DNA of 64,000 nucleotides from Candidatus Binatia bacterium (GCA_026004215.1 BPIR01000003.1:250879-314878); one strand, 5' to 3'. Shown: positions 17,011 through 37,403, numbered from the stretch's first letter. The notes: generated by a model not told the origin, from the letters alone. A program made the numbers and translations.

Positions 17011-18788
17011 GGTGCAACCTTCGCGGGCGGTTGGTCGAGGCCGTGTGCGTACAGGCGATAAAAATGCCCGCGCAGCGCGAGCAATTGTTCGAATGTACCG
17101 CGCTCCACGATGCGACCGCGTTGGAGCACCAAGATTTGCTGGGCACGGCGTACGGTGGACAAACGGTGCGCGATCACCAGTGTAGTTTTGTTCCGACTAA
17201 CGGCTGCCAGCGCCTCCACGATCGCTGCTTCGGTTGCCAGGTCCACCGAGGATGTCGGCTCGTCGAGGACGAGAATGGGCGAGTCGCGCAAAAGCGCCCG
17301 CGCGATGGTGAGCCGCTGTCGCTCTCCTTCCGAAAGCGTGGCCCCTTGGCTCCCGAGGACCGTGTCGTACCCTTGCGGAAGGCGCTGGATGAAGTCATGC
17401 GCTTGCGCGAGGCGCGCGGCCCGCTCGATTTCTTCGCGCGTGGCGTCGGGCTTCCCGTACGCGATGTTTTCCCACACGGAGAGCGGGAAGATCATCGGCG
17501 GTTGCAAAACCATCGTGATCGCCTCGCGAAGAGAGCGCAAGCGAAGCTCGCGGATGTCGTAGCCATCGATCGTAACGCGGCCGCTGTCGGGATCGTAAAA
17601 GCGGGCCAGCAAGCTTACCAACGTGCTCTTGCCGGCGCCGGTGGGGCCGACCAGAGCGATCATTTCACCGGGCTTGGCCTCGAAATCAATGTCCACGAGG
17701 GTGGGCTGGCCGGGCTCGTAGGAAAAATGGACGTGCTCGAAGCGAATCCGTCCCGCAGGCGGTTTCGGAAAATCGCGATGGCCGTCCTGAATTTGCGGAG
17801 CCGTGGCGAACAGCTCCAGCACACGCCACAAGCCTGCGCGCGCGCCTTGCACGGCCCCGTAGGTGGAAAAGATTGCTTGCAGTGGGGAGTACAACGAAGC
17901 GAGGTAACTGAGAAACACCACCAAATCGCCCGCCGTCAGCGTTCCCGCCCACACGCGGTAGGTGCCGAACCACAGAACCGCGGCGCTGCCGGCCGCCAGC
18001 ACAGCGCCGGTGGATGCACCCAGTGCGGTCTGCCAGAGATACAAGCGCAAGTGCGCGCGCAAGCTGGCGGCACTGTGACGAGTGAAGGCTGCATGTTCTT
18101 CGTTTTCTTTACTGAATGCCTGCACCACCTTCATGGCTGCCATCGTGCGTTGCACGTGGTCGTATACGCGGCTTTCCCGCTCGCGTGCCTCGCGTGCAGT
18201 CGAAGTGAGCTTGCGCTCCAGGAGTATCAAAATGGCGATCAAGGCAGGGCAAACGGCCAGCGCCAGGACGGTCAAGAAGCCATCCATCTGGAACAACACG
18301 AAAAACATGCCGGCGAGCAGGCACAAGGAGGCGAGAATGGGAAACACGCCGTTCATCGCCAAGGTTTGGATGGCGTACGTGTCGCTGGTCACCCGGTAGA
18401 TCAAATCGCCGACTGAGGCGCGGGTGTGAAAGGAGAGCGATAGCCGCTGCAGGTGCTGATACAGGCGGCTGCGCAAGTCCGCCACCAAGTTCTGGCCAAT
18501 TGCGATGGTGGTGTAGTTGTTCCACACCTGCAGGAAACCCAGGCAAACGTAAATTCCAAGAAGGCCCAAGGCGGCAAGCGCGAGCAATGGACCACCTCGC
18601 GCCCAGGAGGCCGGCACCCAGGGCAGGGGCCGGCCCGGAAGCACGTAATCAATTGCGATTTTCAAGGGCCAAGGCTTGGCGAGCTCGAGCGCACTGATGA
18701 GACCCACTTGCGCGAGCCCGAGTAAAAACCTGCCCTTGTAGGGGGCGAGTGCAGAAAGCACGAAGGGTACGACACGCGGCCGGGACAC
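17007..18788 (-). CDS. ABC exporter, fused permease/ATPase (MsbA-type)
   Basis: N-terminal 6-TM-type region. Walker A GPTGAGKST, signature LSEGERQR, Walker B ILVLDEPTS. Confidence 0.85.
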   Translation of the reverse strand: MSRPRVVPFVLSALAPYKGRFLLGLAQVGLISALELAKPWPLKIAIDYVLPGRPLPWVPASWARGGPLLALAALGLLGIYVCLGFLQVWNNYTTIAIGQNLVADLRSRLYQHLQRLSLSFHTRASVGDLIYRVTSDTYAIQTLAMNGVFPILASLCLLAGMFFVLFQMDGFLTVLALAVCPALIAILILLERKLTSTAREARERESRVYDHVQRTMAAMKVVQAFSKENEEHAAFTRHSAASLRAHLRLYLWQTALGASTGAVLAAGSAAVLWFGTYRVWAGTLTAGDLVVFLSYLASLYSPLQAIFSTYGAVQGARAGLWRVLELFATAPQIQDGHRDFPKPPAGRIRFEHVHFSYEPGQPTLVDIDFEAKPGEMIALVGPTGAGKSTLVSLLARFYDPDSGRVTIDGYDIRELRLRSLREAITMVLQPPMIFPLSVWENIAYGKPDATREEIERAARLAQAHDFIQRLPQGYDTVLGSQGATLSEGERQRLTIARALLRDSPILVLDEPTSSVDLATEAAIVEALAAVSRNKTTLVIAHRLSTVRRAQQILVLQRGRIVERGTFEQLLALRGHFYRLYAHGLDQPPAKVAP

Positions 18789-18789
18789 T

Positions 18790-21576
18790 TTACTGCTTTT
18801 CCTCCGACCGAACGGCGCTGCCCCATAGGTCCAATTGTTGGGCGACGATCTCCTGTGCGTGCCACACCGTCTGACCGAGGCGGAAGCCCTCGATCAATGT
18901 AACGCCCGCAGTGACGGCGCCGAGGCAAAGCGCGAGCACGCCCACCTCCCGTAGCCCTGCGGCGAGAGACAAAGCCCCGACGGCAACGAGGGCTGCATTG
19001 GCGACCCCAGCCAGCCAGGAGGGTCGCACCCGGCAACGACTGCGCAGCAAACGTTTGGTTCCGCCGTGATTCTCTTCCGCCAGTGCCAGGTCCACCCGTG
19101 CCCACAACCCCCGGTGCACGGTAATGTCGAAATCGCTCCACCCCTGATCGATAGCCACCAAATACTTTCGGGGTGCGAGAAACCCAATGAGCGCATGCAG
19201 GAACTGCTCCTTGCTGGTGCCCCGTTCGCTCCAGAAGCACAGGAAAAATTGCCTTTTCCTCCAGTGGACCTCGGGTGCTTGCGGAAGCCCCGTGAACTGC
19301 ACCCGCGAAGCGCCGTTGTGACCCTGGAGCCGATGGACATAGCGCTGGATACTGCGCACCAATGGCCCCAAGTAGATGAGTGCAGCGACCAACAACCGGC
19401 CCCGCCAGTGGTCGAAGCGCGGATCGATTTTGGCTTTCCAGGCACGCCCGAGCGCGAGAGCGAAAGGGAGAAGCAGAGGCAGAGCCGCAAACAATCGCCA
19501 GCGGCCGGCTACCACGGCTCCGACGAACAGCACCAGGCTGAACACGTTCCACTCCAGCGTGAAAGGGAAATACGCCAGCAACGAAGAGGGCGTCTCGTAC
19601 ATGGTTTGGAAGAGGCCGCGTCCGAACACTCCGTGGTAAATGATCGGTCGCGAAGAAAAGATGGAGAGTCCGAGATCGCCGTAAATCCGCCCGATCCATT
19701 GCGACTGGCCGAGCATGTTGAAGCGGAACGGGTGCTTGAAGTAGAGTTGTGCCTCCGCCTGCCCGTAACCCATTTGTTGCTTGAGGTAGGCCCGCACCGT
19801 GTTGCGGCGAAAATGCCACACCTGGGCCGCCGGGCTAAAGCCGATGCGATAGCCGGCATCTTGCAGCCTCCAGCACACGTCCACATCGTCGCCTGCCGCT
19901 CGGTGCACTGGGTCGAACCCGCCGATTTGCTGCAACGCAGCTTTGCGGAACGCCATGTTGCATCCGGGAATATGTTCCGCGACTTCGTCGTCGAGCAGCA
20001 CGTGCGTCGGACCACCCGGAGCAGCCGCCACGTACGCCGCGACCGCCGAGTCCTCGGGCGGAGGCAAGTTGGGACCACCGACCCCGGCGAAATCGGACGC
20101 AACAAACTTGTAGGCGAGGTAGGTGAGCCAATCCGGATCGACGACGCAGTCGGAGTCCGTATAGGCCACGATTTCTCCGGAGGCCGCCTCCAAGCCGACA
20201 TTGCGGGCCACACTCAAGCCTTGGTTCGCCTGCGAGATAAGGCGGAACTCCGGATATCGCTTGGCGATTTCTTCCGTGCGGTCGGTGGACCCGTCGTTGA
20301 CGACAATGACCTCGTAATTCGGGTAGCGGAGTTCCCGCAGCGAGGCCAAACAGGCGTCCATGGTGCGCTCGGCGTTGTAGGCGCAAATGACGACGGAAAT
20401 CTTCGGCGCCGAAGACAAGGGCGGAGGTAAGGGGGAACGGTAAAGTTTTTGGACAGCGTGAAATGCGGGTTTACGCTGCCGTTGCCGGTCGACGAGGCCA
20501 AAGGCCCAGTCTTCCACTTGCGCGCCGCCGGTGAACCAGTCATCGGTCCAAGAAAACACGAATGTTCCGGCCACCCCGGATTCGAACGCCGCCCGAACTT
20601 GCCAACCGAGGATGTGTGCTTGCCCGTCACTGCCCTCCCGCAACGAGTCGATGCCGAATTCCGTGAGCACCAGGGGCTTGTCGCCCGCGAGGTTTTGCAG
20701 CCGCGACAGATAGCGCCGAAACCTGCGCTCATCGTGCAGGTACACGTTGAAGGAGACGAAGTCCAAAAAATCGAGTTCGAGGTATTCCGTGGGCGGGAAG
20801 TTGGCGTAACTGACCAGAGTGTCCGGCAGCATATCCTTCGCCAGCCCGTAGAGGTCGTGCAAAAAACGGCCGACGCGCTTGGGACCGTGCCAGCGCACGA
20901 CATCGGGCGGAATCTCGTTCCCGAGAAAAATGGCTGCCAGACTCGGATGCCGGCCGAGCCCGCGCAGACTTGCAGCGAAGCTCGAGCGTATGCCGGCGGT
21001 CAGCTTGGCGCTGTCGAGAAAGCAGACGTGTTGCGTCCAAGGGATCCCAGCGAAAACCAATACACCGTGCTCCGCCGCTAAATCCAGAAACCAGTCGGGT
21101 GGCGGCGTAAACGTACGCAAGCAATTGGCCCCCAATTCCTGCATGAGCGCCATATCTCGCCGCACAGTCTGTGGCGAAGGAAATGGGACTCCGTCAGAGG
21201 GAGCAAAAGGGCCGTACGTGACGCCGCGCAAGTAAAGCTTTTCGTCTCCGCGAAAGAAGAATTTGCCTGCCGGACGCAGGCTCAGCGTGTTGGCGGCGTC
21301 CCATTCCACGCGCCGCTCGATGGCCGGGGCGTACATGTGGGGTGCGTTTAGCGAAATCGCCTGCGGAACACACGCGAAGTTGCTCGCGGGCCGGGTGGAG
21401 GTGTCGGGCGGTCGCCGAACTCGCATCCGCGATTCTTCGACCGCCCCCGCACAAAGGGAGGGATGTCGGAGCGACCGACCAGCAGGAAGATGTAGGGGCG
21501 CCCGGCCGTGTGCCCCTACAACGTCCAGCGAGAGGTCGGCCGCAGGGCGTCGCTTTGGGTGTGTTCCCCAAAGCAA
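18790..21576 (-). CDS. fusion protein: clan GH-A TIM-barrel hydrolase-like domain + family 2 glycosyltransferase + C-terminal multi-TM region
   Basis: GH-A-like: YLRGVTYGPF..., LGNEIP (acid/base NE), LVLTEFGID (nucleophile E). GT2: ISVVICAYN, VVNDGSTD, YTDSDCVV, GCNMAFRK, then QQMGYG where Q(Q/R)xRW is expected. Hydrophobic C-terminal third. The true start is probably internal (ATG 21426 or 21336), because the first 50-80 residues of the track ORF look non-coding. Confidence 0.7.
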   Translation of the reverse strand: MLWGTHPKRRPAADLSLDVVGAHGRAPLHLPAGRSLRHPSLCAGAVEESRMRVRRPPDTSTRPASNFACVPQAISLNAPHMYAPAIERRVEWDAANTLSLRPAGKFFFRGDEKLYLRGVTYGPFAPSDGVPFPSPQTVRRDMALMQELGANCLRTFTPPPDWFLDLAAEHGVLVFAGIPWTQHVCFLDSAKLTAGIRSSFAASLRGLGRHPSLAAIFLGNEIPPDVVRWHGPKRVGRFLHDLYGLAKDMLPDTLVSYANFPPTEYLELDFLDFVSFNVYLHDERRFRRYLSRLQNLAGDKPLVLTEFGIDSLREGSDGQAHILGWQVRAAFESGVAGTFVFSWTDDWFTGGAQVEDWAFGLVDRQRQRKPAFHAVQKLYRSPLPPPLSSAPKISVVICAYNAERTMDACLASLRELRYPNYEVIVVNDGSTDRTEEIAKRYPEFRLISQANQGLSVARNVGLEAASGEIVAYTDSDCVVDPDWLTYLAYKFVASDFAGVGGPNLPPPEDSAVAAYVAAAPGGPTHVLLDDEVAEHIPGCNMAFRKAALQQIGGFDPVHRAAGDDVDVCWRLQDAGYRIGFSPAAQVWHFRRNTVRAYLKQQMGYGQAEAQLYFKHPFRFNMLGQSQWIGRIYGDLGLSIFSSRPIIYHGVFGRGLFQTMYETPSSLLAYFPFTLEWNVFSLVLFVGAVVAGRWRLFAALPLLLPFALALGRAWKAKIDPRFDHWRGRLLVAALIYLGPLVRSIQRYVHRLQGHNGASRVQFTGLPQAPEVHWRKRQFFLCFWSERGTSKEQFLHALIGFLAPRKYLVAIDQGWSDFDITVHRGLWARVDLALAEENHGGTKRLLRSRCRVRPSWLAGVANAALVAVGALSLAAGLREVGVLALCLGAVTAGVTLIEGFRLGQTVWHAQEIVAQQLDLWGSAVRSEEKQ

Positions 21577-21936
21577 TGCACCGCAGGGACTTTCCTCGCA
21601 AACCCCGCCGTATCGTATCCAGTCATCGAGCCGAGGGGCGGGCCGGTTGCACCAAGTTGCGGGATTCGCTGCTCGGGCGAGCCCCTCGAACGTGTTGCCG
21701 CTGGGGCCCTGGGCGCCGAGGTGCCCGTGATGTCCGTCCGGCTTCGGAACGTTGATTTCCTTTTACCTCGTACGCGGCGGTCGGGTGGCTGGCGGGCAGT
21801 CTGTGGGCCAGGCGCCTCACCCAGCGATTCACCGCACCTTTCCTCCGTTCCCGCTGCGGCGAAGATACGTGCCGCGAGTTTCCAGCCGTCTGCCAGCGTG
21901 ATAGGGAAGAGGGGCGTCGAAGTCAGGAGGTCAGCC

Positions 21937-22470
21937 ATGCTGGACGAGATCTTCACCGAAGAGGAAGAGATCCAGGCGGAACGGGAGGCAGAGGCTGCAC
22001 GGTTAGGGGCGCAAATCTTGGGCCTGCCGATCAAAAACCTGCCCACCCTCAGGCCTCCGCTCTGTGTTGCGCGCACCGCGAGGGTGCGAGAAGCGATCGA
22101 GCGTATGAACGAATCCGGCGTGGGGTGTGTTCTCGTGGTCGAGGGCGAGCGGCTGTGCGGCATTTTCACGGAACGCGATGTGTTGACGCAAGTCGTCGGC
22201 AAGGCCGTCGACCTCGATCGGCAGAGAGTGGAGGAGTTCATGAGCCCGAATCCCGAGTCGCTGTCCCCGGACGATCGTGTGAGCTTCGCCCTGAACGTGA
22301 TGGCCGTGGGCGGGTTCCGTCACGTACCTCTGGTGGACGACGACGGCCGTCCGGCCGGCGTGGTGTCCATGCGCAACATCGTGGACTATATGGTCGAAGT
22401 GTTTCGCACCGAGGTGCTGAACCTGCCCCCATCGCCGCACCACCTTCCTCGTTCTCGCGAGGGAGGTTGA
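21937..22470 (+). CDS. CBS domain pair protein
   Basis: AGGAGG 6 nt upstream of ATG 21937. GVGCVLVVEGERLCGIFTERDVL and GFRHVPLVDDDGRPAGVVSMRNIV are typical CBS repeats. The longer track ORF 21508..22470 has an implausible N-terminus. Confidence 0.8.
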   Translation: MLDEIFTEEEEIQAEREAEAARLGAQILGLPIKNLPTLRPPLCVARTARVREAIERMNESGVGCVLVVEGERLCGIFTERDVLTQVVGKAVDLDRQRVEEFMSPNPESLSPDDRVSFALNVMAVGGFRHVPLVDDDGRPAGVVSMRNIVDYMVEVFRTEVLNLPPSPHHLPRSREGG

Positions 22471-22543: not shown

Positions 22544-25180
22544 CTAAAGGTCCGCGCCGATTTGCAGCGGTTGCACCTCGTCCCGCTGCGGGTCGATGCG
22601 GACGGCCAGGCGCGGCCAGGGATACACAGGAAGAGTCGCATCGGGAATCCTGCGCGCGAGTGCGAGCAGCGAACCATCATTGGCCCAAGTCACCCGGAAA
22701 AAGTCGAGCTCCGGAGTCGCCCAACTCCGGACCGTCTGTTCGGTGAGGTCCAGGACGTACACCTGGCGCTGCAGCCGCGGGTATGTCCGGCTGCCCGAAG
22801 CAACGAACGCGAGCCGCGTGCCATCCGGGCCCAAAGCAAGGTCGCTAAGCGCAATGGCTCCTTGCACGAGCACCTGGGGGGAATTCTCTCCGGCAGACGG
22901 TACTTGCCAAATCTCCCAGGATGGGCCGTTTGCCAAACCGACGAAGAAAGAGTCGGTCGTGCTGCTCCACGTCACGAACGGAATGCCGTGCTCCCAACTC
23001 AGGAGTGTCTCGAAGTGCTCCGTGCCCGCCCGTTGCCGCAGTAGTCGGCTACCAGCGGAATCGCTGGTGACAATTCCCAGCTCTTCGGGTGGGTTGACGG
23101 CAACTAGAGCGTCCACGCGCTGGTCGAGTAGCCGTAAAATCGTCCGGGCGCGGCCGGAGGCGCCGTAACGCACCACTTTCTCGCCCGCCGCTGCCAAAAT
23201 GGCGCCACTTTGAGTCGGCAGTGCGTAGTTGGCGGCTCCCACCGTGCGCCGGCTTCCGTCGCTTTCGAGTACGAGGACGGAACCCAAATCTCGTGCAGGA
23301 TCGGCGAGGGTGAGCACAAACCAGCCCCGGTCCGGATCGGAGAGGGGTGGTTGCAACAGCCCGCGTGCCAGTTCCCATTCCTTCACGTCACCACTGGTCA
23401 ATCGCAATCGGGCTCGCGTGCGGGACCAGGGAAACGGTTCGCCCTGAACGACGAGAGTGCCGGGCTCGCTCGGCGCCAGGAATAGCGGATCCTCGCGCCG
23501 CGGGTACCGATTGTTTTCGCGAATCGGATCCGCGAGCTGAAGGAACGGATCCACGATTACTTCGGAATCCGCGGAGTCGAGGCGTACTTCACCCGGGGGA
23601 ACCACCTGGATCCACTGCGCTTCGCTCGTCGGTGACTTGCGTACCAACAGCGGTACCGGCCAGGTCCACTTGGCGCTGCCGGCGTTGGTGACCGTCAAGG
23701 TTCCGGGCCCCGCTGGATCCACGGAAAAATCCAGCGTGTCGCGACCCCGCACGAATGATCGAAAGAAGTCCGCCAACGGCTTCCCAGCGCGCCGTTCGAG
23801 TACTTCCTGCACCTCTCGCACCCCGATTTCTTTGTAAGAATACGTGGTCGCGATGTCTCGCAGTGCAGCGAAGAACGCGTCATCCCCGACGACGTGGCGC
23901 AACATCCACGCAACATACGTGCCCTTGCGGTAAATCGTGTCGCGCGCGCGGGCCCGCGGCCAGGCATTGTCGAGCACCGTCATGTCGGCGACGGCTTGCT
24001 GCGTGGCCGGGTCGTACAGCTCGCCGAGCATGCGCCGGACTAAAGCTTCTTGCCCGTGCACCGCCTCGGTGGCGAGCAAGCTGCTGAGTTCGGCGAAACC
24101 CTCGATGATCCATTGGGGGCCACTACCGGCGCGCAACCATCCACCCGTCACAGTTCCACCCCACCACGAGTGTGCGAGCTCATGGGCGATGAGCGCAAAG
24201 CCGCGATCTTCGGAGGCCAGGGCCCGCCGCGGGATGCCCATTGCTCCCGCTCCATCGTGGAATGCACGGTCGAGTTCCGGGTGGACGAAGAGACTCAAAA
24301 ACGAAAACCCAGGATTCCCCAGACGATCCGCCAGCGCGCCATAAGCGGCTTCCATTGTGTCCAGGATCGGGAGTACATCGAGCGTGTCGCTCGAGGGAAC
24401 ATAGGCGCGCAGCCGTACCGCTCCGGCCCAGCGTTCTTGGAAACGGTAGGCGCCAGCGATGAGCCCGAACCCCGCCACCGGCCGTTCGCTTTGCCAGCGG
24501 TACTCCCGACTTTGACCACGCCAATGGATTTCCGAACCGCTTCCGGTTTCGACCAACTGCCAGGATGCCGGCAACTGGATCGTGGCGGCGAGCTGGAAAA
24601 AACCTTGTCCGTCGAGAGGGTACCAGAGGCAATCCGTTGGCAGCAGGACTTCCGCACGGGTGATGCGGCATTCCCGCGGGCGCAAGGAGGGCCGGCCGGC
24701 GTAAGACAAGTGAATCACCTGTGCCGAGCGAGCGGGTTGCGGAAGAGGGCAGCGCACGAGCGGGCCGATTTGTAAACACGCGAGGGGAACGACCGGTGCG
24801 CCGGCAACCTCTGCTTCGCCTTGCTCGATGCGCAAACCGGGATCCAAGAGAAAATACAGTTCTGGGCGAGGCGCTTGAGCCGAGTCGAGACGCAGGGTGA
24901 CTTTGGCCTCGAGACCTTCCCGCGCCGGGTCCACGCGCGCTTCCACGGCCACGGCCTCGATGCGCTGGCCGGAAAACAAAAGCTCTAAGCGCGCGAGCGC
25001 CTTGCGGAGGACCGGCATGTCGGGCGCATGGATGGCATGCCAGCAAACGAAAACGGCCACGACCACGACGAGAGTCGCCAGCCATGCCCCCGTTTCCACC
25101 ATCCCCACAGCCACCCGGGCGAGTTTTCGTCCCCACACGAACATGCGAGCGTCATACGTATGCAAAGCCGCGCCTGTCAA
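22544..25180 (-). CDS. membrane-anchored M1-family (gluzincin) peptidase fused to a TolB/PD40-like beta-propeller region
   Basis: N-terminal TM segment (GAWLATLVVVVAVFVCW). HELAHSWWGG...WIIEGFAE matches HExxH-x18-E. C-terminal repeats such as GTRLAFVASGS...QVYVLDL. Confidence 0.7.
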   Translation of the reverse strand: MTGAALHTYDARMFVWGRKLARVAVGMVETGAWLATLVVVVAVFVCWHAIHAPDMPVLRKALARLELLFSGQRIEAVAVEARVDPAREGLEAKVTLRLDSAQAPRPELYFLLDPGLRIEQGEAEVAGAPVVPLACLQIGPLVRCPLPQPARSAQVIHLSYAGRPSLRPRECRITRAEVLLPTDCLWYPLDGQGFFQLAATIQLPASWQLVETGSGSEIHWRGQSREYRWQSERPVAGFGLIAGAYRFQERWAGAVRLRAYVPSSDTLDVLPILDTMEAAYGALADRLGNPGFSFLSLFVHPELDRAFHDGAGAMGIPRRALASEDRGFALIAHELAHSWWGGTVTGGWLRAGSGPQWIIEGFAELSSLLATEAVHGQEALVRRMLGELYDPATQQAVADMTVLDNAWPRARARDTIYRKGTYVAWMLRHVVGDDAFFAALRDIATTYSYKEIGVREVQEVLERRAGKPLADFFRSFVRGRDTLDFSVDPAGPGTLTVTNAGSAKWTWPVPLLVRKSPTSEAQWIQVVPPGEVRLDSADSEVIVDPFLQLADPIRENNRYPRREDPLFLAPSEPGTLVVQGEPFPWSRTRARLRLTSGDVKEWELARGLLQPPLSDPDRGWFVLTLADPARDLGSVLVLESDGSRRTVGAANYALPTQSGAILAAAGEKVVRYGASGRARTILRLLDQRVDALVAVNPPEELGIVTSDSAGSRLLRQRAGTEHFETLLSWEHGIPFVTWSSTTDSFFVGLANGPSWEIWQVPSAGENSPQVLVQGAIALSDLALGPDGTRLAFVASGSRTYPRLQRQVYVLDLTEQTVRSWATPELDFFRVTWANDGSLLALARRIPDATLPVYPWPRLAVRIDPQRDEVQPLQIGADL

Positions 25181-25313: not shown

Positions 25314-25853
25314 GTGTCGATGTTGGTACGCTGGTTCAAAGAGCAGTGGCCTGTGGTCCGTGTGGTGGCGACCTTCTTGGGGATCATTCTCGCTGTCTTT
25401 GCAGCGACGGACTACGCACCGCTGGCTGACCGCTTGAACTTTGCCGAGTGGATGGCGCAGTTCGCTACGTGGGCCAGTTCCTTTTTGTTGCGTGCCTTGG
25501 GGCCGGTGCTGGGGTTTGCGATCAGTGTGCAAGGCACGCGCATCACTGCTGGTGGCTTTGCGGTGGACGTTACGGAAGCGTGTTCCGGTGTGGTCCCGAC
25601 GGCCATTTACGGCGCCGCGGTGCTGGCGTATCCGGCCAGTTGGCGGGCGCGCGCCATTGGCCTCGCCCTCGGCACTGTTGTGATTCACACTTTGAACGTG
25701 CTGCGGGTGGTCGGCCTGTTTCTGGTTGGGTTGTTTGCGAACCCGTACTTTCATTACACGCATGTGTACTTGGCGCAGGCGCTCGTGATCGTGGTGGCAG
25801 TGGCCACCTGGGTGTACTGGGCTCAACGCTTCGTTCATGTCCCTGGCCGTTGA
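25314..25853 (+). CDS. exosortase/archaeosortase-family transpeptidase, minimal (about 180 aa) form
   Basis: Polytopic membrane protein with the family's Cys/Arg/His triad in order: VDVTEACSGVVP, HTLNVLRVVG, YFHYTHVYLAQA. GAGGAG lies 9 nt upstream of GTG 25314; ATG 25320 is also possible. Confidence 0.75.
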   Translation: MSMLVRWFKEQWPVVRVVATFLGIILAVFAATDYAPLADRLNFAEWMAQFATWASSFLLRALGPVLGFAISVQGTRITAGGFAVDVTEACSGVVPTAIYGAAVLAYPASWRARAIGLALGTVVIHTLNVLRVVGLFLVGLFANPYFHYTHVYLAQALVIVVAVATWVYWAQRFVHVPGR

Positions 25854-26451
25854 CCCACTGCGATTTCTCGGGCAGCTTTTGCTGTCCTTTGTCGCTTTAT
25901 TTTTTGTCTGGCTGTTCGTCGGGCCCTGGTACACGAGCTTCCTGGCCGTGCTGGCGGAATTGGCGGTGAGTATTGCCGACCGGCCGACCGCCGTGTGGTC
26001 CGCAGGGACCGCGCTGTTTTTCTGGCCGCGAGGCCTCGCGCTGCCCCCACAGCCACCGACCATCGCAGGGGAGTGGATCCAGGCGAATACCATCCTGCTG
26101 TTGGCACTGATGATTGCCACTCCGGCGGCGACTTGGGAAAAAAAAGGCAAGCGGCTGGCACTGGCGTTCGCGCTCGTACTCTTGTGGCAGGTGACCGAGC
26201 TCGTGTTGGCCATCCAGTTTGGATACGCCACCCAAGTGGACCCCCAGGCGTACAGTGCACGGGCGCGTTACCGCCTGGCCCTACTGACCAACCTAGCGAT
26301 GTACGTGGACACGCAAGTCGTTCCGTTCATGATCTGGGCGGGCATTCATTTTCGCGAGCTTTTGGCGAGGGCCTTACGCCGTCCGAGTAGCCAGGGAGAA
26401 GCACAAACGGTACGTGCAAAGAAGCACAGGAGTGGGCGTCACTCGACTTGA
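25837..26451 (+). CDS. polytopic membrane protein translationally coupled to the exosortase gene
   Basis: ATG 25837 overlaps the last 17 nt of the exosortase ORF. Four to five hydrophobic segments (LLLSFVALFFVWLFVGPWY..., ILLLALMIATPAA..., LALAFALVLLWQV...). Basic C-terminal tail. No family recognised with certainty. Confidence 0.6.
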   Translation: MSLAVDPLRFLGQLLLSFVALFFVWLFVGPWYTSFLAVLAELAVSIADRPTAVWSAGTALFFWPRGLALPPQPPTIAGEWIQANTILLLALMIATPAATWEKKGKRLALAFALVLLWQVTELVLAIQFGYATQVDPQAYSARARYRLALLTNLAMYVDTQVVPFMIWAGIHFRELLARALRRPSSQGEAQTVRAKKHRSGRHST

Positions 26452-29400
26452 ACGGCTTCCAGGCGCACCGCGGATCGCGCCAGGGCCGGCGATGCCGAAC
26501 TTACTTCGACCCAGAGCGTGGCCGGCAAGGTCATGGCTTCCGCACTCGCAGCCGCAAAGTGCAGTTGGCCGCCGACCGCGCGTTGGGCCACGAGCGGTGG
26601 CTTGCCCTGCACCACCAGGCGGGCACCAATGGAGCGCACGCGTCGCGGATCGTAAGTCACGCGGGCTTCCAGCGCCGAGAACGCGGTGGGAAGGGCGATA
26701 CGGTAAGGGATGCGGTGCAGCGTTTGCCGGCCGCGCCGCAAGAGCCGCGGCTGTCCCCGCTGGACGCGTCCGATTGCCCCCTGAACCGCCGGAGGAGTTT
26801 GCCACGACGCGTTCACGTCGCCGATGAGAACCCCGAGAAAGTCTTGCCCACTCGCACTGGCGCCGAGTGGGGCGTATTCGATGGCGCCGCTCACACATGG
26901 GCTGAGAGATGGCTGGGGCATCAGAAGAGACTGATTGGGAACCGGGTCCGGTACGGGGATGAACTGCCAAGGAGACCCACAGCTCACCGTCGCCGGGAGT
27001 GTCGCAATAGCCCCCACGACGTAGCGAAGCAGCACGGCGGCATCGGCCGCAGTCACTTGACCCGATGCATCCACGTCCGCTGCGAGCGCCTCGCTCGTGC
27101 TCAATGTTCGTAAGCCCACTGCGCCCTGCAAAATCATCACCGCGTCGCTTGCGGTGATCGCTCCCGAGCCGCTGGCATCGAGCCATGGCTCGATGCGGTT
27201 CGATCCGACAACGGCTTGCCCAAAGGTGAACGTTCCTGTCGAGTCGGTCATGACCTCGACGGGGGGATTGGCCAGACGCACGTGTGTGCCCGCCATCGGC
27301 TGCAGACTTCCGTGGTAGCGAATAACGCCCGAGAGTTGGACGGTGGGCACGGTCGTCGCCGTGGGGGACATTGTTGGAGAAAAGCTCGCGGTTTGAGTGG
27401 GCGTCTGGGTACGGGAAGGTGTCGCCGTCCGAGTTGGGCTCGCCGTTGCGGTGTGCGTTCGTGTGAACGTCGGCGAGGGCGACGCAGTTGGGGACCGCGT
27501 GGCGGTTCGACTCGGCGTTGCGGTGTCGGTCGGTGTGAAGCTCGGCGTGCGGGTGTGTGTGGGTGTTCCCGAGAATGTGCGGGTTGGGGTCAACGTTGGG
27601 CTGGGTGTTTCGCTGCGAGTGGCAGTGGCCGTCTGTGTCGGAGTGAGAGTGCGTGTCGCCGTCATGGTGGCGGTGGGAGCGGGCGTCGAGGTCCAGGACG
27701 GGGTCGGGGTGAGGGAAGGTGTGGTCGTGATCGTTGGCGAAGGTGTTTCCGTAAACGTCGGCGTGATCGTTGGGGTGGCGCTCGGCGGCAAAGTTTGTGT
27801 GAATGTCGGCGTGGAGGTCGCCGTTCCGGTTGCAGTGGGAGGCACGGTATCGGTGGGAGTGGCGGAGACCGTTGGCGTGTTCGTGTGAGTCGCTGTGGCG
27901 CTGAGCGTGGGAGTCCACGAGGGCGTGAACGTGGATGTCGGAGTGCGAGACGGCGTTGCGGTGTTGGTGGGAGTTCGGGTTGCGGTCTCGGTTGCCGTCG
28001 CCGTGAACGTACGCGTCGGCGTCCCTGTGCGCGTCGGTGTTGCGGTAAAGCTGGCCGTCGGCGTGCGCGTAGGGGTCCGCGTGGTCGTGGGTGTACGGGT
28101 GAGCGACGGCGTTGGCGTCGCTGTCAGGGTTCTCGTGGGTGTGACGGTGGCAGTATCGGTTGCCGTTGGGCTGGGTGTGGGGCTGCGCGTTTCCGTTGGG
28201 GTGAAGCTAGGGCCGGAGTAGGGGTAAACGAACTGCATCGCCGCGATGTCATCTGCCCGAACCTCAGCGCAGCGGCCATCGTTGTGCGCCCGATAATACA
28301 TTGTGGCGTCTTTGAGTGTGAAGTTAGGCTCGGTAGGGTTTTCCGAAGAATGCCCGAGGCCTATGCTGTGGCCCACTTCATGAGTCAGCACCTCGGCAAC
28401 CAAGCACGGGGTCCAAAATTGAGGGCACTGCGTAGACCAGCCGTCGTTGAGAACGACTTTGCCGGTGGTGATCGCGTTGAAAGTCGTGCCGTTCACGGTG
28501 ACCTGGTAAAACCCGCTGGAGCAATAGCCTCCAATTGCGAGCGTGCCGGAGCAATTGTTGGGGTCGCTGATTTCGCCCCGTGGATCGTCGAACACGATGC
28601 GGTTGAAGCCGCAACCGCCGTAACCGAGCGGAGTCGGGGTGGGAAATCCAGGAGCTGGTGTGGGAGTGGGGCTGATGACGCCGCCGTAGTTCAACACCAG
28701 TCCCGCTCCGGGCACAGAGCTCCACGCGGCCAACGCGTCGGCGACGGCTTGCATCGAGGCTGTCGGACCTAGCCCAGAGTCGATGGTGCTCTCATACGTC
28801 ACGGGCGTGCCCGAGTCGGCTTGGTGCCAGCGCGCCGGCGGGCTACCGAGCAGGGTAAAGGCCGCGTGATACTCGTAAAGCGCGCTCGGGTCCTCGACTG
28901 CACTCGCAGTCGGAGGTGCACTGGGCATGCTTCCCGGGTTTTCGGAACTTCCAGAAGCCAGTGCGCGAATCAGATCGAGAAAAGTCTCTAGCTCTTGTTC
29001 GCGTGGCGCCGCCGAGGCAAACCCTCCGCCCGGTGCGGCGAAGACCGAGCCCGGTCCCGGATCGCCCACGGCGACGCGCACTCCGTCGCTACGCTGTCGA
29101 ATCCCGAACTTTCCCAGAGCGAGCGAGTTGATCTGCCAATGACCCTCACGGTCTCGCGCGAGGAACAGCACCACGTCTTCGCCGAGAAAGAACTGTGGGG
29201 CCCCGAAAATCCACTCGATGCGCTCTCCCACCTGCCCGCCGGGCACGCGCACGTTCACACTGGGTTCGGGCAGCGCACCTTTGATGGTTTCGAACACCCG
29301 CACGCCAATCCAAGTGGCGATTGCGTCATCTCCGGTGATTGTGGAGCGAATTTCTGTGACCCGTCCGACGACGATGCACTCCGAACTCGCGACTAAGGCT

Positions 29401-29507
29401 TCGTCGCTCATGGGCACGAACGTGGTGGCCCTTGCCGCAAGAGCAGTCAAGCAAGTCGCCACCAGCGAAGCGAGAAAAATTGCCCGACAACCGATCGAAT
29501 GCTGCAT
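26439..29507 (-). CDS. secreted metzincin (matrixin-like) protease - PT linker - CarboxypepD_reg-like - dockerin-like - cohesin-like
   Basis: Start set at ATG 29507 ([27 protein letters not shown] signal). [12 protein letters not shown] plus Met-turn ATMYY. About 290-aa Pro/Thr linker. LSGVIRYHG...TDSTGTFTF. Dockerin loops [17 protein letters not shown] and [23 protein letters not shown]-terminal [13 protein letters not shown] block. Confidence 0.75.
27341..28210 (-). repeat. Pro/Thr-rich low-complexity linker coding region (about 290 codons)
   Basis: Runs from [18 protein letters not shown]... to ...[15 protein letters not shown]. Produces spurious GV-rich and Arg-rich ORFs in other frames. 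Confidence 0.9.
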
Positions 29508-29610
29508 GCGGAACAAATTCCTCGTCAGTCTGATACTGGGATTCGTGCCACCGCGGTGGAGGGTGCACAAGTGAGAATTTGCGCTCGCTCCGACAAGGCG
29601 ACCCGCGAGC

Positions 29611-32600
29611 CTATTCGATGCTCGACTGGGTGATGATGACCTGTCTTCGGCTGGGTCGTGCGCCCTGCCCGAAGCTGAGCCAACCAAGGATGTCGGGAGC
29701 TGGATTTGCGTGGACACGGGCGAGTGCGAAGCTGATTTCATCCGGTCCGATCCGGTAAGCGGCGAGGGCGGATAGCGATTTGGAGCGGAGCGAAAGTTTT
29801 GCACGCCCGAGCCGATCTCGGTCGAAGCGAATTCGTGCGGTCACCGCATTCCACGAGCCAGCGCCACGAACTTCGATGGGTACTCGCCACTGCCCGCGAA
29901 AGTGCCGGGGCGTCCCTAGTCGGATCGAGACGGGCTTCTGTGCAAGTTCTGCTTTTCGTTGTCGCAACGCCGCTCGGGCGATCAGGCCCGATCCGTCCAC
30001 CCGTGCAGACTGGAAATCGCCGTTACAATCTCCCATCAACCCGGAGACAAAGTCGAGACCCTGAATGTCTTGCATGACGCCACTGAGCGACACCTGCAAG
30101 ACCGTCCCACAGTTGTTCGTCGTGACCGGCGTCGGCGTGGCCACCGGCGGGAGCGAGCCAGCGGGCAGGACGATCCACGAGCCCACGCAGGAGTTCGCGG
30201 GCGCTATGCCCACGACGTAGCGCAGTATCGCCACGGCATCCGAAGCAGTTAGGGAGCCGTTTCCGTCCGCGTCGCAAGTCTTTTGTTTGAGCTCGTTTCC
30301 AGAAACCGTGCCGGTGACCATCCGAAGCACCTCGACCGCATCGCCGGCACTGATGGGCTGACTACCGGTGCTGATGCGCGCCATGAGGGTGTGCGCCTCA
30401 TCAGGTAAAGCGGCAACTCGCACAGACCCAGGGGGCACGCCATCGATTTGGTACGCTCCATCGCTTCCAGTAAGCGCAAGCAGGGAACCGAAATCGCTCT
30501 CCGCCCGCACCGGAACGTTGGGAAGTGGAGAGGTGACATCGAAGTAACCCACCCGGCCACTGAGACGCAGCGCGGCAAGTGTGGGTGTAGCGGTAGGTGT
30601 CGGGCTTGCGGTGTTGGAGGGCCGTGGGCTCGCGGTAAAAGTTTCGGTCGGCGTGGGCGTGCGGGTCGGGCTGCTGGTGGGCGACGAAGTGGGCGTGCGT
30701 GTCGGTGTTTGGGAAGGAGACGACGACGGCGATGGAGTGGGCGATCGTGTCGGCGTTTCGGTTCGGGTTCGCGTTGGCGTTGTCGTGCTGGACGGGGTGC
30801 GCGTCGCCGTCCGAGTTGGAGTTCGCGTTGGGGTCAACGTCAGCGTAAACGTGTTGGTCGCGCTGGCCGTGGAGGTAGCCGTGCGGGTTGGCGTGTGCGT
30901 GCGCGTGGGCGTTGCGGTGAGGGTCGAGGTGTGTGTCGCCGTGAGTGTAGGTGTCAAGGTGTGAGTCGAAGTGGGCGAGTTCGTTGCCGTGCGCGTCGGA
31001 GTGAACGTGTTCGTCGGGGTACGTGTGAACGTCACCGTGGGCGTGCTCGACGGAGTGAACGTCGGAGTGGACGTACGGGTGTAGGTTCTCGTCGGCGTCA
31101 TCGTTCGGGTGGGCGTAAAGGTGAACGTGTTCGTGGCCGTGGGTGTCTGACTGGGTGTGGACGTGGCCGTGGCTGTGGGCGACCACGTGCGAGTGGGCGT
31201 GATCGTGGGCGACGGTGTGTCGGTGCGGGTCGGCGTTCGAGTCGGGGTACCTGTGGGCGTAAAGGAGTTCGTGGGGGTGAATGTGGAGGTTGGAGAACGA
31301 CTCGGCGTTTGGGTCGGCGTGGTCGTTGGTGTGCTCGTGTTGGTTGCGGTGGCAGTGACTGTCGGCGTCTGAGTGGGAGTGGGGGTCCCTGTTGCCGTGA
31401 AGGAGTTCGTTGCTGTGGCGCTGGCAGTGGGCGTAAACGTCGGCGAAGGGGAACGTGTCGGGCTGGGGCTCGCTGTCGGAGTTGGCCGGTTGGTTGGGGT
31501 CCACGCGGCAGTAGCGGTTGGGCTCGGAGTACTGGTGGGCACACTGGTTGGCGGCGGAGGCAGGGTAAAGTCGAGCGTGGCCACTCGCACGCGCGCGGCA
31601 TCGGGGACCGAGAGGAACAGATGGCCGTCGCTGTCCAGCGTTAGGCCGGTTACTCGCGAGATGCCCGCGGCCAGTGCCGGGCCGCCGTCTCCCGTATTCA
31701 ACGCAGTGCCATTGCCCACCACCGTCGTGATGACTCCGCTCGCCGCGTCCACTCGCCGGATCCGGTAGTTGCCCGCATCGGCAATCAGCAAATTTCCGAA
31801 CAGATCGAATGCAATGCGCGTGGGTGCCGAGAGTTGCGCTTGCGTGGCGGGTCCCCCGTCTCCGCTAAAGCCAGCCCAACCGGTGCCCGCAATGCGTTCC
31901 AGCAAACCGCCGCGAATACGGCGGATCATGTTGTTGCCGCGGTCCACGAAATACAAGCTGCCATCCGGCCCGATGGCCACGTCGGTGGGACCGGCGAGCG
32001 GGGACTGTGCTGCTACGGCGCCATCGGGCGGGTTGCCCCACGAGCCGTTGCCGGCAACCGTGGTGATGATCCCCGCTTCCACCTTGCGCACGCGGTTGTT
32101 CTGCAAATCCGCGATGTACAAAATGCGGCCATCCGCGGAAACGGCCACGCTCCAAGGGTTGGCCAGCGTCGCTTGTGTGGCTGGGATTCCGTCACCGTTG
32201 TATCCGAACGCTCCCGTGCCTGCGATTGTGGAAATGACGCCGGTTGTCGCGTCTAGCTTCCTCACGCGGTGGCCGTTGAGTTCGGCAATATAAAGGTTGC
32301 CCGACATGTCGGCCGCGACGGCGAGCGGATTTGTCAGTTGAGCGCTAATCGCCAAGCCGCCGTCTCCGCAAGGAGAGCCTGTGCTGCAGGGGCTGCCGTT
32401 GCCCGCCACCGTGGTGATTGTCCCGGTTAGCGAGCTGACCATTCGCACCCGGTGATTGGCGCTGTCCGCAATGTACAGCTCGAAGCCCGCACCATTGGTA
32501 AACTCGTGTACGAGCAGGCCCATGGGATCTACCAGCGCGTCCGCCGCCGTGCCGCCGTCGCCCACGCCTCCGCCAACGAGCGGCGACACGATACCGCTCG

Positions 32601-33831
32601 GTGGCACCGCACGTACGCGATCTTCCGTGTTGGGCGGAGCTGCCACGTACTGGCCAATGTATACGGCAGCCCGTAGCACCATCAGTGGCAAGACCCGTAA
32701 GCAGGGCAAAGCTCGTTTGCGTCGCCAGCCCACCGTCCGGTGAGGGCGCGCGCGTGCCGTTGCCGGCGACGGTTTTGATGATGGACTGTCCAGTAATCAG
32801 ACCGCCAACCGATTCGAGTCGGCGGACGCGGTTGTTGCCGACGTCCGTGAAGTACAAATTTCCGCCGGGTCGAAGGCGAGCTTGCCCGGATTGAAAATCC
32901 TCGCTGCAGATGCCGGCCCATTGTCGCCAGTAAAAGCCTGAATGCCGTCGCCAACCACGGTTGTAATCGTTCCTTGCATGTCCACGCGGCGAATACGCGA
33001 GTTGGCGAAATCGGCGATGAAGAGGTTGCCCGCGTCATCGAGTGCGACGTGCCACGGGTTGGCGAGCTTGGCTTGAGTAGCCGGGCCACCGTCGCCGCTG
33101 TATCCCCATGCCCCCGTGCCGGCGACCGTAGTGATGATGCCGTTCGGTCCGACCTTGCGCACGCGGTTACCGTCGGACTCTGCAATATAAAGGTTGCCTG
33201 CGCTGTCGAGGGCAAGCCCGCGCGGCGCATTCACGCTGGCACTGGTCGCGGGGCCACCATCGCCGTTGCTGAACCCACGGCCGTCCCCGACGACGGTGAC
33301 GATAGTGCCGTCGGATGAAACCTTGCGTACGCGGTGGTTGAACGTATCGGCAACGTACAACTCGCCCCCGGCTCCGCAGATCACGTCTGTTGGAAAATTC
33401 AGTTGCGCCGCCAAGGCCGGGCCTCCATCGCCGGAAAAACCTTTGGTGCCGGTACCGGCTACGGTCGTGATGGTCAGCTTTACGAGATCCACTTTGCGCA
33501 CTCGGTGATTGAGCCCATCGGCGATAAACAGCACTCGCCCGCAAACCGCGAGCCCACGCGGGTCCACGATGCCATTCCATGCAACGCCGCCGTCGCCCAC
33601 GCCTCCCCCAACCACAGTGGCGATGAAGCCCGTGGGCGGAAAGTCGAGAGCCGAGCTGCGAGGGCACCAGGGCGCAAAGAAAAAAACCAGAAAGTAAGCG
33701 AGCAAGTGCGGAAATCCGCTTCGCCTGGTGGAGCAGAGTCTCGCAACGCTGGGTGGGAGTTGGTGAAACTTGTTACGCATTCGGAGTTTCCAGAACTGCC
33801 GGCACCGGATGCATGATGCCTTTCTTGTCAC
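29611..33831 (-). pseudogene. double NHL-repeat beta-propeller - PT linker - CarboxypepD_reg-like - dockerin-like - cohesin-like protein, frame broken twice
   Basis: Three consecutive track ORFs (32797..33831, 32345..32857, 29611..32733) each carry NHL repeats (e.g. [56 protein letters not shown]). One NHL blade is split at about 32862 (KLAFDPA / GNLYFTDVGNN), and a second shift lies at about 32660-32700. Likely start is ATG 33780. The C-terminal cassette is as in 26439..29507. Confidence 0.7.
30583..31565 (-). repeat. Pro/Thr-rich linker coding region (about 330 codons)
   Basis: Runs from [24 protein letters not shown]... to ...[10 protein letters not shown]. Confidence 0.9.
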
Positions 33832-34310: not shown

Positions 34311-34379
34311 GAAGTCCCCGTTAGCGGGGCTCTTTTGGGCAGAACGTAGAACGTGGCACAGAAGCAAAGGAGTTTGCGG

Positions 34380-35621
34380 ATGGCGAGAGGACGAATGCAG
34401 AGGGGAGATGTGGGTTCGCGGAGGATTGTTTGTGGCTTGGCGGGTGTCGTCATCGGCGTACTTTGCGTTGGCCGCCAGGCGGAAGCCCAGTTCAGCCTTT
34501 CGTTCAACCAGCGGGCTTCGAACGGTACGGTCTATGAAGTCATCGTCGTGCCGAACCCTCCCTTGAGTGCCGGCGCCGATCAGATGCGCATCACGACCAT
34601 CGCCGGTTCCACATCCGGTGTTCAGTCGTGTTCTTCCACCGGAGGGAGTTCGGGTCAAAACACTGCGGCGGTTGCTGGGGTGGATCCGAACATCGGTTCC
34701 TTGCATCCGTTTGCTGCGGTCCTTCGCACCAACGTATTGACGCCCGCAAACGTATCCTCTGTTTCGTTTAACGCCGGTGGAGGCGGGCGCTTGACGATCG
34801 GCGGAATTGATATCTGCGCCAACCCGGCGGACTGCACCGGCGGCGCTCCGGATGCGACGATCTTCGACCTCGATGGGAACCCAGTTGCGGCGGGCTCCGT
34901 GACGGGCACCGCCGTGCCGCCGGCTTGCATCGCCTCCGGCGTAACGGCTTTGTGCTCTTCGGGTAACTTCAACACTTTCGGTTTCGACTTGCCCCGCGAT
35001 TCGAACACAAAAGCTTGCCAAGCCCCGCCCACTACGAATCGGACGGTATGTGGTTCGCCGCCAACGGACGGCTTTACCGTAGGCCCGGGCCAGGTCGTGG
35101 TATTCATCTATGACGGCAACTTGGCGAACACCGGATTTAGTGTAGGCGCGGCTGGTTTTGGGATCGACACGGACGGGGTCAACAATCCTAATTGTGCGGC
35201 AAATAGCGTGATCACGGCCGACGGCCAAAACCCGAGCGCTCCGCCCCCACCGCCTCCGACGCCCACCAACACTCCGTCAAACACGCCTACACCCACGAGC
35301 ACTCCGACGCACACCTTTACCCTGACCCCGACGGACACGCCGACGAACACTCCCACGCCTACCAATACACCGACACCCACGTTCACCCTGACGCCGACGA
35401 ACACCCCGACAAACACGCGTACGAATACGCCAACCGCTACCCGTACGAACACACCAACGAATACCCCCACAAACACGCACACACCGACACCCAGCCCGTC
35501 GCCCACACCGCCGCCGATACCGGTGGTGCCCTCTCCGATCTCGCCTGCGGGTGCGGCCATGATCAGTGGCCTGGCTGCGGCCCTGGTGTGGATGATGCGT
35601 CGGGCACTGCGCCGAGGCTAG
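34380..35621 (+). CDS. secreted protein: unknown Cys-rich N-domain - PT repeats - PEP-CTERM-like C-terminal sorting signal (paralog A)
   Basis: AAGGAG 7 nt upstream of ATG 34380; signal-like [24 protein letters not shown]. About 260-aa domain alignable to paralog B. TPTNTP repeats. Tail [38 protein letters not shown]. Confidence 0.8.
35239..35510 (+). repeat. Pro/Thr repeat coding region (about 90 codons)
   Basis: Runs from [25 protein letters not shown]... to ...[12 protein letters not shown]. Confidence 0.9.
35511..35618 (+). other. C-terminal tripartite sorting signal, copy A
   Basis: PPIPVVPSP motif, 17-18 hydrophobic residues ([16 protein letters not shown]), then basic RRALRRG at the extreme C-terminus. 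Confidence 0.65.
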
Positions 35622-37144: not shown

Positions 37145-37371
37145 GCTCCTATCCTGCACTGCACCGAGCGCAGGAACGTCGAAGCTCGCGCTGGCCTCGA
37201 CGCAAAACAATTTGACTGTGGCTGAAGTGTTCGCCTCTAGCGCGTTCCACGTGCGGATCACGTGCGACGGCATCGGCAACATTCAATGGTGCTGACCCAG
37301 CAGCAGAGTGTGCGGTGCTTGCGAAAATGACTTGCGAACGCTCCTTCGGTGGGTGAGAAGAACAAGGCACA

Positions 37372-37395
37372 GTGCAGTGATCGGTCTCACTGCAC
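37372..37395. promoter_or_regulatory. perfect 9-bp inverted repeat just upstream of the cohesin-dockerin gene start
   Basis: GTGCAGTGA-TCGGTC-TCACTGCAC, ending 8 nt before ATG 37404. Could be an operator or a 5' UTR hairpin. Confidence 0.3.
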
Positions 37396-37403
37396 GAGCG
37401 GGC

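Follow-up and report, generated by a model that had tools for sequence, protein, structure and literature searches.

A minimal XrtH-like exosortase, its overlapping membrane partner and a candidate new class of sorting signal in Candidatus Binatia

We analyzed a minimal exosortase, its membrane partner and their candidate substrates in a 64,000-nucleotide stretch of DNA (64 kb, G+C 62.7%; below, the window) from a Candidatus Binatia bacterium (GCA_026004215.1 BPIR01000003.1:250879-314878). On the plus strand, open reading frame (ORF) A (25314..25853) encodes a minimal XrtH-like exosortase of 179 amino acids (aa), ORF B (25837..26451) encodes a polytopic membrane protein of 204 aa that appears to be a divergent XrtH-associated partner, and two putative substrates, S1 (34353..35621, 422 aa) and S2 (35669..37144, 491 aa), lie further downstream. 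ORF A starts with GTG at 25314, with GAGGAG located 9 nt 5' of it, and ends with a stop codon at 25851-25853; an in-frame ATG at 25320 is an alternative start. The ATG of ORF B lies within the 3' end of ORF A, and the two genes overlap by 17 nt (25837..25853, ATGTCCCTGGCCGTTGA), as a first-pass annotation of this DNA had noted.

The same annotation had read ORF A as a minimal exosortase with the Cys, Arg and His hallmark residues, and the data agreed with this reading. ORF A scored 49.5 bits against the TIGR04178 exo_archaeo signature, above its curated cutoff of 23, and 32.2 bits against Pfam PF09721 Exosortase_EpsH (cutoff 25.7). Since only positions 108-250 of the 254 in the PF09721 model were matched, ORF A is a genuinely minimal form. 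The motifs DVTEACSG, TLNVLRVVG and YFHYTHVY are present in ORF A, and Cys90, Arg131 and His150 were invariant across an alignment of 28 sequences, which comprised this clade, true XrtH proteins and one XrtM. By signature, domain and Cys/Arg/His residues, ORF A belongs to the exosortase/archaeosortase superfamily. The AlphaFold2 (AF2) model of ORF A (predicted local distance difference test, pLDDT, 90.0) contains helices H2-33 and H43-66, a three-stranded sheet at 71-85, and helices H93-105, H110-141 and H143-173. A Foldseek search of this model against the PDB gave nothing at E<=0.001, with a TM-score never above about 0.35, and a PDB sequence search with the ORF A profile gave none below E=0.1. 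The noise-level Foldseek matches of the ORF A and ORF B models were claudin/TARP and rhodopsin.

The subtype of ORF A was examined by model scoring and by a tree, as the first-pass annotation had proposed. No curated subtype cutoff was exceeded. The best subtype model was XrtH (TIGR04177), with 83.7 bits against a cutoff of 86 (2.3 below), followed by XrtX (NF046081; 69.4 bits, cutoff 170), ArtB (TIGR04144; 56.4 bits, cutoff 150) and XrtM (54.0 bits, cutoff 125). A homology search with ORF A returned 26 further 90%-identity clusters of proteins of about 180 aa with 49-80% identity. The few named members come from metagenome-assembled genomes of Candidatus Binatia, and the NCBI label for one relative is merely 'archaeosortase/exosortase family protein'. 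Beyond this clade the identity falls to 37-48%, where the proteins are named 'exosortase H (IPTLxxWG-CTERM-specific)' by JGI. A scan of one genome per GTDB species yielded 34 loci with an ORF A homolog (L001-L034), almost all of them labelled Binatia.

Six other members of the ORF A clade were tested against TIGR04177 and scored 74.9-84.7 bits, while the true XrtH proteins P0031 and P0036 scored 117.2 and 128.7 bits; the score distribution is therefore bimodal, with seven clade members at 75-85 bits and true XrtH at 117-129. In a tree of 44 sequences, built by neighbour joining only and rooted with XrtM, the ORF A clade was monophyletic in 100/100 bootstraps and was placed on a long stem beside the XrtH set. 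The nucleophile flank is VDV(T/S)(E/P)ACSG(A/V)VP in the ORF A clade and VNIRNGCNGVEA in XrtH, and the core around the catalytic Cys differed consistently (TEACSG(A/V)VP versus RNGCNGVEA). Because of the sub-cutoff TIGR04177 score, the separate clade and the different Cys flanks, we place ORF A by sequence comparison in a sister sub-branch of XrtH, rather than among its curated members; this clade is almost entirely Candidatus Binatia.

The arrangement of ORF A and ORF B was then compared between genomes. An ORF B homolog stood directly after the ORF A homolog in 34/34 species loci; the first-pass annotation had proposed this check for homologs of 25837..26451. It had also set ORF A beside the short subtypes with a dedicated partner, and this was correct. 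In all 32 loci with both ends readable, as in the window, the overlap was exactly 17 nt with an ATG start. The pair and its overlap are not due to chance, because both recur in 34 species-level genomes. The overlap nucleotides were kept in most of L001-L034 (ATGCGCCTGGGCGTTAA); they code for ...(A/V)PGR* in the ORF A frame and for M(R/S)L(G/A)(V/I) in the ORF B frame. No Shine-Dalgarno-like sequence was found before the ORF B ATG in the window. The 17-nt overlap is best read from its sequence as translational coupling of ORF A and ORF B.

The same arrangement was found outside the Binatia clade. Four distant ORF B homologs (22-27% identity, L040-L043) were each located directly after an exosortase of 169-191 aa (4/4), with a 17-, 4- or 1-nt overlap or a 22-nt gap. 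The partners after true XrtH overlapped by 17 nt at P0036 and by 4 nt at P0031, and the 17-nt overlap was present at the XrtH-type loci L038 and L040. Exosortase-partner adjacency was seen at every one of the six loci inspected outside the Binatia clade (L035 and L038 with true XrtH, L040-L043 with distant ORF B homologs), and no ORF B homolog without an exosortase neighbour was seen among the loci inspected. The A-B pairing is obligate, yet not peculiar to the Binatia subtype; the XrtH-type family as a whole shares it.

The first-pass annotation had left the partner unassigned, and here the data led further. ORF B scored 25.4 bits (E=1e-5) against NF041730, the exosortase H-associated membrane protein model, below its cutoff of 35, and 15 of the 34 ORF B homologs matched this model at E<0.01 (best E 2.3e-7). 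Pfam PF28117 (XrtH_assoc) is precomputed on the ORF B homologs P0065, P0070 and P0072, and as 'weak' on P0110; the close homologs that carry PF28117 share 63-68% local BLASTP identity with ORF B. The partners of true XrtH could be aligned with ORF B at 22-23% identity, and relatives of 190-230 aa from at least 253 clusters were recovered with a profile search. From model scores and synteny, ORF B is assigned as a divergent member of the catalogued family of exosortase-H-associated membrane proteins. The AF2 model of ORF B (pLDDT 91.8) consists of H7-47, a three-stranded sheet at 51-77, H78-94, H100-134, and H141-160 with H162-180, and a basic C-terminal helix at the end; with 4-5 helices the protein is polytopic. 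A conserved Cys was absent from the family alignments. No match below E=0.1 was obtained in a PDB sequence search with the ORF B profile, and Foldseek of the ORF B model against the PDB gave nothing at E<=0.001 (TM-score never above about 0.35).

Two other assignments of ORF B were rejected. ORF B is not the missing N-terminal half of a long exosortase: it had no PF09721 match even at E<=1, and hhalign puts it on the C-terminal core of ORF A. EpsI is a single-transmembrane protein with a periplasmic domain, and an EpsI-type partner was rejected as ORF B is polytopic with 4-5 helices. Some representatives of the ORF B family (P0291, P0301, P0315, P0322) carry C-terminal tetratricopeptide repeats (TPR) fused to the partner, and a faint TPR match was seen in the gene after the partner at the true-XrtH locus L038. 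In the ORF B family these repeats lie on the predicted cytoplasmic side and therefore fit a scaffolding role; the fusions hint that the XrtH-associated partner recruits other proteins.

The candidate sorting signal was examined next. Two copies of the motif IPV[VI]PSP are present in the window (nt 35517 and nt 37037). They lie 33-35 residues before the stops of two long ORFs, S1 and S2, which are tandem plus-strand paralogs. Both have a signal peptide (by inspection), a paralogous domain of about 290 aa, a long proline-threonine (PT) repeat linker, which is longer in S2, and a C-terminal tail. The domain of about 290 aa, which contains Cys in S1, had no Pfam match in either protein. The tail reads PPPIPV(V/I)PSPxxPxG, followed by a hydrophobic helix and then basic residues. 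The tail motif is located at about 35514..35552 in S1 and at about 37034..37072 in S2; a transmembrane helix follows in both, and the proteins end with RRALRRG and RSLRTSR, respectively. A hidden Markov model (HMM) built from 7 tails scored S1 with 69.4 bits and S2 with 68.5 bits.

This tail HMM gave 10 strong matches (59-80 bits), in the window and at L008, L012, L013, L015 and L027. Every strong tail gene, both in the window and in the A-selected set (L001-L034), was located 4-10 kb downstream of ORF A on the same strand. Among the A-selected loci with a full 10-kb downstream flank, 5/20 had a tail-bearing ORF, and in 3 further of the 20 (L001, L002, L018) an S1 homolog at the same downstream distance as in the window ran off the fetched flank before its tail. 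A tail-seeded metagenome scan added 30 more loci; at L044 and L045 the A-B pair was found 6-8 kb upstream of the tails, and at L056 ORF B was found upstream. The collection from 0.94 Mb of sequence finally comprised 52 tails, 42 of them unique. Their consensus is P-[IV]-P-V-[VI]-[PSA]-S-P-T-S-P-A-G, in which P1, P3, P8 and G13 are invariant; 15-16 uncharged hydrophobic residues and an Arg-rich end follow. The carrier proteins, often encoded in tandem pairs, have a signal peptide and a PT linker and represent five or more unrelated N-terminal domains. By these sequence features the Binatia tails fit the operational definition of a tripartite sorting signal given by Haft 2023 (bioRxiv 10.1101/2023.06.07.544157), a work that also describes the Cys/Arg/His triad and the subtype-specific signals. 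A tail-profile search of a set of 5.8 billion proteins returned just 18 short fragments (24-80 aa) and missed S1 and S2 themselves, so that it gives no family count.

The first-pass annotation had taken IPV[VI]PSP as a candidate signal distinct from IPTLxxWG; the tails do differ from IPTLxxWG and are the likely cognate signal, with a motif longer than it had described. A scan of 14 tails with the models of NCBIfam release 20 (E<=10) left every one below the cutoff of each sorting domain. The best scores were 21.1 bits for VPXXXP-CTERM (cutoff 30), 17.1 for MYXO-CTERM (TIGR03901, cutoff 20) and 12.1 for PID-CTERM (cutoff 26). None of the 14 tails matched IPTL-CTERM (TIGR04174, cutoff 20.5 bits), and there was no domain match to PEP-CTERM (TIGR02595, cutoff 16) among them; synthetic controls for IPTL-CTERM (IPTLSEWG) and PEP-CTERM gave 50.9 and 38.0 bits, respectively, with the matching models. 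With regular expressions, neither IPTLxxWG tails nor PEP-type tails were detected in the 64-kb window or in the 0.94 Mb of fetched loci. Handling of the tails by a rhombosortase or a myxosortase was considered unlikely, as the motif contains neither GlyGly nor Cys and the tails are linked to A-B.

Some unusual tails were also seen. The tail fragment P0045 carries the JGI label 'MYXO-CTERM domain-containing protein' with 17.1 bits against the cutoff of 20; the tail motifs have no Cys, whereas MYXO-CTERM needs an invariant Cys, and the label is probably a mis-annotation from the common helix and Arg part. At L008 a third PT-linker protein (18848..20218) lies beside two canonical tail proteins and ends with a degenerate tail (...APAASPAGLAALVGMLAGVSFLLLRRRRG), in which SPAG, the helix and the Arg cluster are kept and the PIPVV part is lost (tail HMM 8.6 bits); this tag may be in decay, or the minimal element may consist of SPAG. 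At L027 two tail ORFs (17529..17915 and 19334..19657) are shortened by frame changes in the PT repeats, with poly-Arg in the upstream frame, which probably reflects assembly or sequencing error in the repeats.

Compared with known systems, the locus most resembles the XrtH system, which consists of TIGR04177, NF041730/PF28117 and the IPTL-CTERM tag TIGR04174. Both have a short exosortase (about 160-200 aa) with the Cys/Arg/His triad and an overlapping downstream gene for a polytopic partner of about 200 aa from the same family, with the 17-nt overlap at L038 and L040, and both tags start with IP-(T/V)-(L/V) and end with G just before the helix. However, the Binatia enzymes score 75-85 bits, under the XrtH cutoff, in comparison with 117-129 for true XrtH. 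The Binatia tag has 12-13 residues instead of 8, lacks Trp and misses TIGR04174, and the genes of the Binatia substrates lie in cis, at most about 10 kb away, an arrangement seen at none of the six XrtH-type loci examined. Archaeosortase B with VPXXXP-CTERM (TIGR04144/TIGR04143) is also short (156-position model) and its signal has a Pro-rich motif like that of the Binatia tails, two of which matched VPXXXP-CTERM weakly (21.1 and 17.6 bits), mainly over the helix part of the model. However, ArtB is archaeal, the 56.4 bits of ORF A are far under the ArtB cutoff of 150 and the tails are under the VPXXXP cutoff of 30; we know of no B-type partner of ArtB. Exosortase X (NF046081) is another short form, with 168 positions, to which ORF A aligned over its full length with 69.4 bits against a cutoff of 170. 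PID-CTERM (NF046080), which we presume from the adjacent accession numbers to be paired with XrtX, gave 12.1 bits on one Binatia tail against a cutoff of 26. The classical pairs XrtA/EpsH with PEP-CTERM and ArtA with PGF-CTERM share the superfamily and the triad with ORF A. Their substrates, like those of Binatia, have a signal peptide, a Thr/Pro-rich stalk and a tripartite C-terminal tag, and P-I-P resembles P-E-P. In contrast, XrtA has more than 8 transmembrane helices and about three times the length of ORF A, occurs in extracellular polysaccharide loci and often has EpsI as a fusion or as a partner, where ORF A has a B-type protein, and the PEP-CTERM cutoff was not reached by the Binatia tails.

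Within the literature collection searched, no paper on XrtH, the XrtH partner, or exosortases in Binatia/Binatota was found. The first-pass annotation had suggested a new subtype. None of the observations that it had named as refuting was made: no subtype cutoff was exceeded, no IPTL-CTERM tail was seen in the window or in the 0.94 Mb, and the catalytic Cys is present. However, the exosortase is no orphan, being sister to XrtH and only 2.3 bits under the TIGR04177 cutoff. Because ORF A is sister to XrtH and the partner is catalogued, 'new subtype' is better put as a new XrtH-like sub-branch that has a signal class of its own. The A-B pair with its tails thus belongs to the known XrtH system and is no new kind of system. 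New here are the 13-residue tag and the cis-encoded substrates; the curated XrtH score was not reached and, as far as it could be tested, the cognate signal differs.

We consider it likely that A-B is a two-subunit XrtH-type exosortase machine of Candidatus Binatia which acts on PIPVV-tailed surface proteins. Catalysis would be the task of ORF A, which would act within the membrane as a cysteine endopeptidase or transpeptidase with Cys90, Arg131 and His150. ORF B, made in fixed proportion to ORF A through the conserved 17-nt overlap, would be a non-catalytic membrane partner that probably docks on ORF A as a scaffold, a substrate gate or an acceptor-binding subunit. The substrates, S1 and S2 in the window, would be Sec-exported surface proteins with a globular domain on a PT-rich, probably glycosylated stalk, kept in the inner membrane by the tripartite tag until ORF A recognises P[IV]PV[VI]xSPTSPAG. 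ORF A would then cut off the helix and the Arg tail and hand the mature protein to a surface anchor. Under the positive-inside rule the basic loop YPASWRARA is predicted to be cytoplasmic, and therefore Cys90, Arg131 and His150 should lie in the outer half of the membrane, where a helix-held tag would present SPTSPAG. The data themselves show the homology, the invariant triad, the constant pairing and overlap of the two genes, and the build of the tag with its occurrence on unrelated proteins and in cis to A-B. By analogy with XrtA/PEP-CTERM and ArtA/PGF-CTERM, we infer cleavage, anchoring, an A-B complex and glycosylation for this system as well. One tail fragment weakly matched the Thr-rich stalk of ArtA-dependent S-layer (surface-layer) glycoproteins (E=0.038), and the S-layer of Methylomirabilis is built from an IPTL-CTERM protein (PMC8671808). 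Because the PT linkers resemble the ArtA-dependent Thr-rich stalks, and in parallel with the Methylomirabilis S-layer, a surface-coat role of S1 and S2 is plausible.

Several points weigh against this interpretation. A physical A-B interaction and the role of ORF B are deduced from gene order, and to our knowledge no XrtH-type enzyme, whichever member is considered, has been studied experimentally. No tail gene was found within 10 kb at 12/20 full-flank loci, the linkage of tails and enzyme was observed within 64 kb of the source genome and in 20-kb pieces of the others, and the absence of IPTL- and PEP-CTERM tails comes from a regular-expression scan of fragments only. With a score just 2.3 bits under the cutoff, ORF A could also be treated as an ordinary exosortase H that TIGR04177 narrowly misses, whose IPTL-CTERM substrates are encoded elsewhere, while the PIPVV tails belong to another enzyme or are plain anchors. 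XrtH is indeed the top model (83.7 versus 86), ORF B falls in the XrtH-associated family, substrates are not adjacent in true XrtH loci either, and the tail start IPV[VI] resembles IPTL. However, the bimodal TIGR04177 scores, the long branch with 100% support and the consistently different catalytic-Cys flanks separate the clade from XrtH; no IPTLxxWG tail appeared in the window or in the related loci, and the tails missed TIGR04174 even at E<=10, where the control scored 50.9 bits. The cis-linkage of tails to A-B is, moreover, far above the level that a few dozen genes, placed at random in a genome of several Mb, would show. We therefore regard this explanation as improbable. It is far less probable still that ORF B has nothing to do with sorting and simply shares the operon, as a small transporter or a housekeeping membrane protein might. 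ORF B has no known function, catalytic motif or PDB relative, as this would allow; however, the adjacency held at all 34 A-selected loci and at each of the six inspected outside the Binatia clade, the overlap was kept within the Binatia clade and recurred at L038 and L040, across A proteins with 37-48% BLASTP identity and B proteins with about 22%, and no ORF B homolog lacking an exosortase neighbour was seen.

The two-subunit reading would be refined, not contradicted, if ORF B were a paralog of the exosortase core without catalytic activity and the enzyme an obligate heterodimer of an active and an inactive subunit. From the sheet on, the order of elements in the AF2 models is the same (71-85, H93-105, H110-141 and H143-173 in ORF A; 51-77, H78-94, H100-134 and H141-180 in ORF B). 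In hhalign, residues 85-146 of ORF B were aligned with 96-153 of ORF A, pairing LATPAxTW..R with LAYPASWRAR (P=0.006-0.009, with reversed-profile controls at P=0.14-0.37), and 0/90 locally shuffled decoys reached the real score (24.6 versus 14.3+-2.9 and 23.9 versus 13.6+-2.3 for two ORF B alignments). Reciprocal hmmsearch gave the same register with 5-11 bits, and ORF B, which has no conserved Cys, has Glu79 at the position of Cys90 when the alignment is extended manually. However, the hhalign probability was just 5-6%, the bit scores were low, spurious matches are common for membrane helices, Foldseek against the PDB was uninformative for both models, and one long helix precedes the sheet in ORF B where ORF A has two. 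A search of 1.84 billion representatives with the ORF B profile gave 460 relatives, of which the best 150 were all B-type, with no exosortase among the matches listed; since the listed matches are all B-type, this search is silent on remote A-B homology. We hold it possible, though less likely than not, that ORF B is such a dead paralog. Its wider form, in which minimal exosortases are coupled obligate heterodimers and the Binatia pair has co-evolved with a private 13-residue tag for a PT-stalked surface layer, is likewise put forward as a speculation that is rather unlikely to hold.

Exosortase subtypes are defined by an enzyme clade together with a private C-terminal tag, and the locus gives an uncatalogued enzyme-tag pairing for Binatia, a poorly known phylum-level lineage. 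In current annotation the enzyme is a generic 'archaeosortase/exosortase family protein', and the partner and the substrates are hypothetical. With a tail HMM and an enzyme HMM specific to the clade, annotators could mark the surface proteins of Binatia, among which there may be proteins of the S-layer type, as the IPTL-CTERM protein of the Methylomirabilis S-layer suggests by analogy. Because the enzyme, the partner and two substrates are cis-linked in 12 kb, the locus is also a compact cassette for a first biochemical test of an XrtH-type system and of the function of its conserved partner. The general picture of exosortase action is left unchanged, and the finding will not surprise a specialist, because subtypes with private signals are an established pattern (Haft 2023).

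The surroundings of the four genes were also inspected. Secreted proteins with very long PT-repeat linkers and without a PIPVV tail are encoded at 26439..33831 on the minus strand and at 37308..39734 on the plus strand. On the minus strand, a matrixin-like metalloprotease carrying a dockerin is encoded at 26439..29804, together with two NHL-repeat proteins, of which one (29611..32733) has a weak dockerin-like match of 16.8 bits, below the cutoff of 22.9, and the other lies at 32797..33831; the plus-strand gene product has a weak cohesin match, a PT linker and a dockerin-like Cys/Asp-rich C-terminus. This PT-linker cluster resembles a cohesin-dockerin surface assembly and is situated between the exosortase pair and the substrates. 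Upstream of ORF A lie genes for an ABC exporter (17010..18893, minus strand), a 990-aa protein with a GH2-like TIM barrel and a GT2 glycosyltransferase (18793..21762, minus strand), a CBS-domain protein (21496..22467, plus strand) and an 878-aa M1-peptidase-like protein (22544..25180, minus strand), the last being divergent from the exosortase gene. Long GV-repeat ORFs antisense to the PT linkers (27397..28221, 30548..30961, 35980..37047 and 38045..39493) are artefacts of repeat composition and not genes.

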